A stretch of 64,000 nucleotides of DNA from Octopus sinensis (taxonomy: Eukaryota). A program made the translations under genes and the position numbers. The stretch covers positions 156,612,001 to 156,676,000 of the forward strand of contig NC_042998.1 of the NCBI RefSeq assembly GCF_006345805.1. The letters are read 5' to 3'. The notes under the pieces are model-generated. The model was not told where the DNA came from, did no database searches, and saw only the letters and a list, made by a program, of their open reading frames with translations. Shown one piece after another: positions 50,805-51,984 of this stretch (position 1 is its first letter; every line of letters begins with the position of its first letter).

Positions 50805-51077
50805 GTAAGTTTTTTTGGGGTCTGTCTGTCTATATCATTATATGTAAAATATCAGGTAGCGAGGTTTTTTTTAGAAATTTCACTACCAGTGGCCTAGCAT
50901 GTGGCCTAGTCAATAGACAACATATTCTCAATATAAAATAGCGTACATTTAAACACAAGAGAAACTGCCTTCAACATGCAGCTTTACATGCTAGAAGTAG
51001 TCAAAACGACCAAAACCACATTTAAGAGCAATTCTGAAGGGAATGAAAAATAAAAACTTTTACCTTGTTATTTTATT

Positions 51078-51151
51078 ACAGTAATACCTAGGTTTCAAAT
51101 AGTTTTAGCAAATAAGATAATTTGCTAGTCAAAATTCTCATCAGTGACCGT
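51078..51151 (-). ncRNA. hammerhead ribozyme motif (left arm, intact GUA)
   Basis: acggtca-CTGATGA-gaat...tagcaaat-tatctt-atttgcta...attt-GAAA-CCTAGG-TA-ttactgt. Confidence 0.75.
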
Positions 51152-51429
51152 GCCATAACACTAACATATAGTTAAGAGACAAATAACATGTATCTCATCG
51201 TTATACATTATAATTTTTCAAATCCACCGCGCAAGCACAGTTTCAGTCGGCAGTAAATAAATAAATGCCGAACTAATCTTCTGAAAATTGCTAAAACCAT
51301 AAGATTAGTTCAGCGTTTATTTATTTACTGCTGACTGAAACTGTTCTTGCACGGTGAATTTGAAAAATTATAACGTATAACAATGAGACGCATGTTATTT
51401 GTCTCTTAACTATATGTTAGTGTTATGGC

Positions 51430-51503
51430 ACAGTCACTGATGAGAATTTCGCCTAGCAAATTATTTTATTTGCTAAAACTATTTGAAACCTTGGTGTTAC
51501 TGT
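51430..51503 (+). ncRNA. hammerhead ribozyme motif (right arm, triplet mutated to GUG)
   Basis: acagtca-CTGATGA-...-GAAA-CCTTGG-TG-ttactgt. Confidence 0.7.
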
Positions 51504-51984
51504 AATAAAATAACAAGGTAAAAGTTTTTATTTTTCATTCCTTTCAGAATTGCTCTTAAATGTGGTTTTGGTCGTTTTGACTACTTCTTCTAGCATGTAA
51601 AGCTGCCTGTTGAAGGCAGTTTCTCTTGTGTTTAAATGTACACTATTTTATTTCATTAAATGGTTAATTTTAATGGCATTTCCATTGTAACCATCTTAAT
51701 ACTAAGTAGTGTGCTACTTCTGGCAGCATTGTATTTTCAATAAACAGGTTTACCTTTATGCCACATAAAACTGGTGTTATTGTTTTTGTACCATAATATA
51801 ACAGTTCAACAAATACACATTGACTAAATAAGTAACAAACTTAAAAGTATGTTCAATGATTAATATGCTAGACTAAACCAGACTAATTCCTTAAAGGTGG
51901 TGCCCAAGCATGACTGAAACCCAGCAACCAATAAAATACTGTATGAATAAAAGGATATACATACCATTCTTAACATTTATTAGT

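Follow-up and report, generated by a model that had tools for sequence, protein, structure and literature searches.

The DNA analysed here is a 64,000-nucleotide stretch of the Octopus sinensis genome, which we call the window and to which all coordinates refer unless another contig is named. We concentrate on a KYAT-like coding exon and on the intron that follows it, where two copies of one repeat lie head to head, each of them with a predicted hammerhead ribozyme. The features are, in order of position:

50676..50804, plus strand: KYAT-like coding exon upstream of the element, with AG/GT borders, PDB matches and spliced contigs
50805..55258, plus strand: intron carrying the element, its end placed by the loose end of RNA contigs, which matches the exon at 55259
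50840..50932, minus strand: outer unpaired part of the left copy, the 3' end of the family monomer (family profile match 51285-50844)
50933..51297, minus strand: left arm, antisense copy; arm and outer part make about one whole monomer of ~460 nt
51078..51151, minus strand: antisense type I hammerhead (predicted); core, CCUAGG and GUA kept, with a stem I mismatch, a short stem II and 3 private stem II changes
51298..51651, plus strand: right arm, sense copy, stopping at the commonest 3' end of the family
51430..51503, plus strand: sense type I hammerhead (predicted); stem I and II lesions as in the antisense copy, plus CCUUGG (51492) and GUG (51496)
51549..51634, plus strand: cluster of 11 A-to-G sites, likely ADAR hyper-editing, in the locus-specific RNA-type contigs X1 and X2
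55259..55379, plus strand: next KYAT-like exon

In a PDB search, the best aminotransferase matches of exon 50676-50804 were kynurenine aminotransferases (E 4e-10); three RecA-fusion chains are top-ranked as well, by way of six weak repeats, none of which passes alone. The exon is joined to the exon at 55259 in all five runs presumed to be RNA (a status that is guessed), and no alternative junction was seen in any of the five, in contigs that drop rare forms. Within the exon, the same five runs showed no A>G change and a single C>T in X5. An assembly gap lies at 42343-42442, and the preceding KYAT-like exon is found on the unplaced contig G000:C3981, and therefore the gene is split in this assembly. 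That contig also carries, at ~23053-23359 and ~3.7 kb before its KYAT-like exon, an older relative of the repeat (L093), antisense to the gene and with a broken core; no exon farther upstream, which would show L093 to be intronic, was found.

Anatomy of the fold-back

The inverted arms of ~350 bp reported by the first-pass annotation are confirmed, at 50933-51283 and 51298-51651, as 93.5% alike over 354 nt. The arms stood as described, but the size given for the element did not, since the left copy runs on unpaired to ~50840 (with a family match to 50844), which leaves ~35-40 nt to the splice donor. The 14 nt between the arms (51284-51297), the loop of the hairpin, are likewise family sequence. 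The sequence of 50840-50932 also follows the arm in other family copies. No open reading frame of at least 35 aa spans the hammerheads, tblastn with the protein of locus L038 detected no RT/GIY-YIG remnant either here or in 45 loci of the family, and the window's own copy has no TA run.

Reads also bear out the inverted repeat. The hairpin centre is spanned without a single difference in contigs from the DNA of two studies (X19, 51229-51420, from a DNA run that may be the source of the assembly, and X20, 51229-51348), the right junction is crossed by DNA contigs of two studies, and the left junction by one. The DNA runs in which the locus is present carry two species labels (X19 and X20).

Hammerheads and their lesions

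The CUGANGA/GAAA core is present in both arms, as had been claimed for a CUGAUGA core with GAAA on each strand: in the sense arm the CTGATGA core is at 51437 and GAAA at 51485, with CCTTGG and a TG at 51495-51496, and in the antisense arm the core is at 51144, with CCTAGG and TA. The contrast drawn earlier between CCUAGG/GUA on the antisense side and CCUUGG/GUG on the sense side is likewise correct, the NUH triplet and the palindromic helix III being kept in the antisense arm and lost in the sense arm. These are not the minimal hammerheads they had been called, but hammerheads of type I, with a short palindromic helix III present and a long stem II.

What did not hold is the claim that the damage is limited to the sense ribozyme. 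Stem I of the family majority consists of 6 bp without a mismatch, and its stem II is closed; in both arms, stem I is unpaired next to the cut site by a C-U mismatch at its second pair, and stem II is shortened, both lesions belonging to the 18 departures from the family majority that the two arms have in common. Genome-wide, this stem I/II variant is confined to these two arms (2 of 2 matches at up to 2 mismatches), and therefore it is older than the differences between them. The predicted fold energies of the hammerheads are -5.1 and -5.2 kcal/mol for the arms versus -14.6 kcal/mol for the family majority, and with stem II forced they are -3.9 and -4.0 versus -11.6 kcal/mol. The sense arm has 12 private changes (the triplet A-to-G counted) and the antisense arm 9 (p 0.66), three of them in each arm lying inside the hammerhead. 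On the other side of the balance, the palindrome dimer is predicted to be weaker for the sense copy (-8.5 kcal/mol) than for the antisense copy (-13.4 kcal/mol). Judged from their sequence, both predicted ribozymes, and not the sense copy alone, are likely to have been crippled by ordinary decay.

No Rfam hammerhead family appeared at the locus among the best 150 of 191 matches, nor did one reach the gathering score in three well-preserved copies of the family, and therefore the ribozyme call rests on the motif and the stems. The Rfam miRNA matches were discarded as TA-repeat noise.

The repeat family and its probable Penelope affinity

A genome search with the arm returned 2,287 first-look candidates; 40 of these were scored. 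Once 12 duplicates, 4 loci of the window and a single exon locus had been set aside, 45 family loci were kept, 44 of them with a match, a sample biased toward long, similar copies and small against the 2,287 candidates. The monomer is ~470 nt, with other copies running past the end of the arm and back into its start. An inverted partner lies within 400 nt at 25 of the 44 other loci (2 of these being matches of <40 nt) and is missing at 19; 18 loci have a partial tandem, 7 have hammerhead spans on both strands, and two full head-to-tail hammerhead units occur at none of the 44. The 3' end runs into TA-type repeats at ~20 of 28 loci, counted by eye, and end-to-start joints of the repeat occur in RNA-type contigs and also in DNA runs. 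We found no description of this hammerhead repeat family in the literature searched; Repbase, Dfam and article supplements, which lay outside that search, may hold it.

Insertions of Penelope-like elements are described with an inverted, 5'-truncated copy beside the pLTR (Craig 2021, PMC8557442; Arkhipova 2013, PMC3846280), and hammerhead pairs on opposite strands, 100-700 bp apart, are described in these elements by Cervera and De la Pena 2014 (PMC4209133), in both cases in the available text of those papers. A 2026 preprint, in the portion accessible to us, makes the case that the retrozymes of animals derive from Penelope and are non-autonomous (bioRxiv 10.64898/2026.07.22.740005). No autonomous partner bearing this repeat in a closely similar form was found among 30 of the 147 GIY-YIG matches in the genome, and therefore the Penelope origin is inferred from architecture. 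Only one of the 30 loci, L034, has a distant relative of the repeat nearby (19 bits, on the opposite strand and beyond a TA run), which is probably a separate insertion. By analogy of architecture, the element is likely a non-autonomous Penelope-like element, and the earlier description of a non-coding, fold-back element with Penelope-type hammerheads is supported to that extent.

Several other elements of related kinds were observed in the window and in the genome. L034 itself holds, at 2290-2883, a distant sister family with a partial-tandem hammerhead repeat, a perfect stem I and a CUCGAG palindrome, beside a GIY-YIG fragment; L037, L038 and L047 represent an abundant RT-GIY-YIG family whose open frames are long, reaching 883 aa, and whose 3' region carries a hammerhead of the U3-A8 type. 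In the window, 20729-21884 (plus strand) is an RT-GIY-YIG retroelement remnant matching the L038 protein (E 2e-18), and further hammerhead-like motifs occur at 44228 (minus), 45240 (plus) and 31411 (minus), two of them with a U3-A8 core variant. A second inverted pair, with arms of ~1.4 kb and 86% identity, occupies 35136-38948 and carries, on either strand, a different hammerhead of type I (plus-strand core at 38230, minus-strand core at 35855). The ORF pieces that it encloses look to us like a Penelope thumb and GIY-YIG, an identity that neither Pfam nor pairwise tests supported. In this pair the polarity is reversed, the plus copy keeping its palindrome and the minus copy not, and it was left out as a control given that the gap at 42343-42442 lies between the pair and the exon and that the exon before this one is on another contig. 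At 59220-60452 (minus strand), downstream of the mapped exons, an RVT_1 domain (E 1e-16) lies in a 411-aa frame that is probably a LINE remnant; 48548-48974 is a tandem array with a 67-nt unit, and 16056-16137 a perfect palindrome of ~80 nt with equal scores on both strands.

Probable decay and editing, and the predicted hairpin

When the earlier test of intactness (core plus CCUAGG plus NUH) is applied to the 32 other hammerhead copies, 8 pass, or 11 with a G-U pair allowed, and therefore a pair with a broken sense copy and an intact antisense copy is expected in 19-23% of cases. Among 19 copies picked by their flanks only, CCUAGG and UH are kept in 6 and a G stands at the cut site in 3; CCUUGG is likewise found in L012 and L084. 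Against even decay stands that palindrome and triplet are both broken in only 1 of the 32 other copies. The antisense arm has no private change in its palindrome and triplet, an outcome with a 61% chance. The divergence between the arms (6.5%) falls inside the range of other fold-backs (5-17%), and thus there is no sign of special conservation. Chance decay, which the first-pass annotation had itself offered as a fair alternative, is the better explanation of what is seen.

The geometry of the insertion points the same way. In the folding prediction, the bases of the sense core all pair with the left arm, with a probability of ~1, and the masking is predicted already for a transcript ending at 51445, just past the core; in the antisense transcript, core masking is predicted likewise. 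Since the complementary arm would be made first and the duplex would mask the sense core, selection against the sense ribozyme would be unnecessary. Each strand moreover has one hammerhead, and therefore no dimer can form in cis.

As for the duplex itself, A-to-G clusters had been expected in RNA reads, and they were found in the right arm, in two of the five presumed RNA runs, in one study at a depth of ~4 (<5), with RNA status guessed and with DNA that is not from a matched individual. The locus-specific arm contigs listed come from these two runs (not from X3, X5 or X6) and cover the right arm outside the hammerhead only. Contig X2 (51525-51738) has 10 differences, 10 of 10 being A>G on the gene strand, against a background of 17% (p 2e-8), and contig X1 (51514-51755) has 14 differences, the 10 listed all being A>G; nine A>G sites, including two AAA runs, are common to both, and both contigs extend 87-104 nt from the right arm into unique intron. 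Within X2, the changes affect 10 of the 25 As in the arm and none of the 23 in the flank (p 7e-4). At the changed sites, A is the base in the left arm and in nearly all family copies, no fetched family copy has more than 2 Gs at the 10 sites of X2, and 51634 is A in locus-specific contigs of DNA runs from other samples. A 5' G is found at 0 of 11 changed sites and, as a weak comparison, at 3 of the 25 As in the arm. That inverted repeats are edited is described as a general rule, with octopus among the richest (Porath 2017, PMC5625713; PMC9068888), and lizard Penelope is described as heavily edited (PMC5625713; PMC9068888), both in the available portions of these sources. The duplex is thus likely an ADAR substrate, hyper-edited from A to I. 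The suggestion that it could affect editing or splicing stands for the A-to-G cluster in the arm; for splicing or for editing of the exon it does not, no such effect having been seen in any of the five runs.

Other explanations have to be weighed against this. Palindromes are hard to assemble, and the KYAT-like gene is split across an assembly gap, which would suit a false palindrome; however, the centre is covered without a difference in DNA contigs from two studies, which makes an assembly artefact unlikely, and with arms that differ at 6.5% of their sites and contigs that also cross both junctions (the left one in one contig) we consider its probability practically nil. A fold-back DNA transposon or MITE with chance hammerhead-like words would account for the long terminal inverted arms and for the lack of coding capacity, but it is most improbable, given that arm lengths vary by locus, that the 19 loci noted above have no inverted partner, that partial tandems are common, that no target-site duplication is visible at the ends, and that the first three positions of stem I are paired in 28 of 32 family copies.

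Two further readings accept the element and assign it a consequence for the gene. According to the first-pass annotation, a sense ribozyme able to cut the KYAT pre-mRNA was disabled, with CCUUGG and GUG fixed by selection in order to spare the transcript. This has in its favor that both extra lesions of the sense copy lie within 8 nt, in the palindrome and triplet, a clustering with a chance of ~3% under even decay (13% over 19 conserved bases) and chosen after the fact, that a GUG triplet is reported as not cleaved in the accessible text of PMC4191386, and that retrozymes are depleted in the introns of Xenopus according to the available part of the preprint (bioRxiv 10.64898/2026.07.22.740005). 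We nonetheless abandon it as unlikely. The stem I and II lesions common to both arms predate the sense-only changes, decay is symmetric, and the arm that is synthesised first is predicted to mask the core; the sense transcript has one hammerhead and no dimer in cis, and single minimal hammerhead motifs are not cleaved in vitro in the experiments covered by the available text of PMC4209133. In addition, one-sided survival is seen in other fold-backs with two hammerheads, in 1 of the 7 by the strict count and in 4 when G-U is accepted. For an Anolis element, no reads ended at the cut site, according to the available portion of PMC11167929. The other reading is co-option of the hairpin, either for the tuning of KYAT splicing or as an inducer of editing in the nearby exon, which would fit an element that starts close to the donor, appears edited and is present under both species labels; but the exon is free of A>G and has one junction in all five runs, the arms have diverged within the range of other fold-backs, and editing of repeats is mostly generic (PMC5625713 and PMC9068888, in their available portions), so we regard co-option as quite unlikely.

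We therefore favor, with a probability of about 80%, a decayed head-to-head Penelope-type pair in a KYAT-like intron, with a hairpin that would mask its own cores and is likely edited by ADAR, and with ribozymes that likely decayed without selection. A Penelope enzyme acting in trans would have inserted the pair, reverse transcription leaving the inverted copy at the 5' side. The lesions common to both arms would have come first, by way of a mutated template or of arm-to-arm conversion, and the private lesions later, as the arms drifted 6.5% apart. In the pre-mRNA, the arms would then zip into a hairpin of ~350 bp that masks the sense hammerhead, ADAR would treat this hairpin like any repeat duplex, and the element would have no host function.

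A single locus of this kind matters little, being a dead repeat that is likely edited by ADAR. It is nevertheless a worked case tying the insertion geometry of Penelope to double-stranded RNA and hyper-editing, and the family raises the question of whether live sense-strand ribozymes are purged by host genes while the fold-back geometry is exempt. We offer as a doubtful, wider proposal that head-to-head insertion acts as an off-switch, in that the complementary arm is made first on either strand, so that intronic fold-backs would be tolerated and live solo sense copies purged. If this were true, the family, with more than half of the sampled loci inverted, would provide ADAR with hundreds to a thousand self-contained hairpins, which would go some way towards accounting for the very high load of hyper-editing in octopus-type genomes.

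Compared with known systems, the element shares with EN+ Penelope-like elements and their solo or truncated pLTR derivatives the type I hammerhead with a long helix II and a small palindromic helix III, the partial tandems, the head-to-head inverted copy, the opposite-strand hammerheads a few hundred bases apart and the (TA)n in which many family copies end. It differs from autonomous Penelope-like elements in that the window copy has no RT/GIY-YIG ORF and no matching autonomous partner was found among the 30 loci. With the non-LTR retrozymes of animals, as described in the available text of PMC7229834 and bioRxiv 10.64898/2026.07.22.740005, it shares a short, AT-rich, non-coding monomer, a type I hammerhead and an often intronic position, as well as circularly permuted copies and dispersed monomers. 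In contrast, the retrozyme monomer is ~220-390 nt in those same portions (Cervera and De la Pena 2020, PMC7229834; bioRxiv 10.64898/2026.07.22.740005) and ~470 nt here, and an active non-LTR retrozyme, which the accessible part of the 2026 preprint describes as having at least 2 consecutive full-hammerhead units, is matched by 0 of 44 family loci. Finally, as with the hyper-edited inverted or palindromic repeats described in the available text of PMC5625713 (inverted Alus, Xenopus Harbinger and lizard Penelope), there is a long, near-perfect intronic duplex with clustered A-to-G changes and a self-contained hairpin with a short loop, octopus being reported as very rich in both. Inverted Alus arise from two independent insertions and palindromic repeats from a palindromic consensus, neither of which applies here, whereas the hairpin of this intron would result from the way in which a ribozyme-bearing element inserted.
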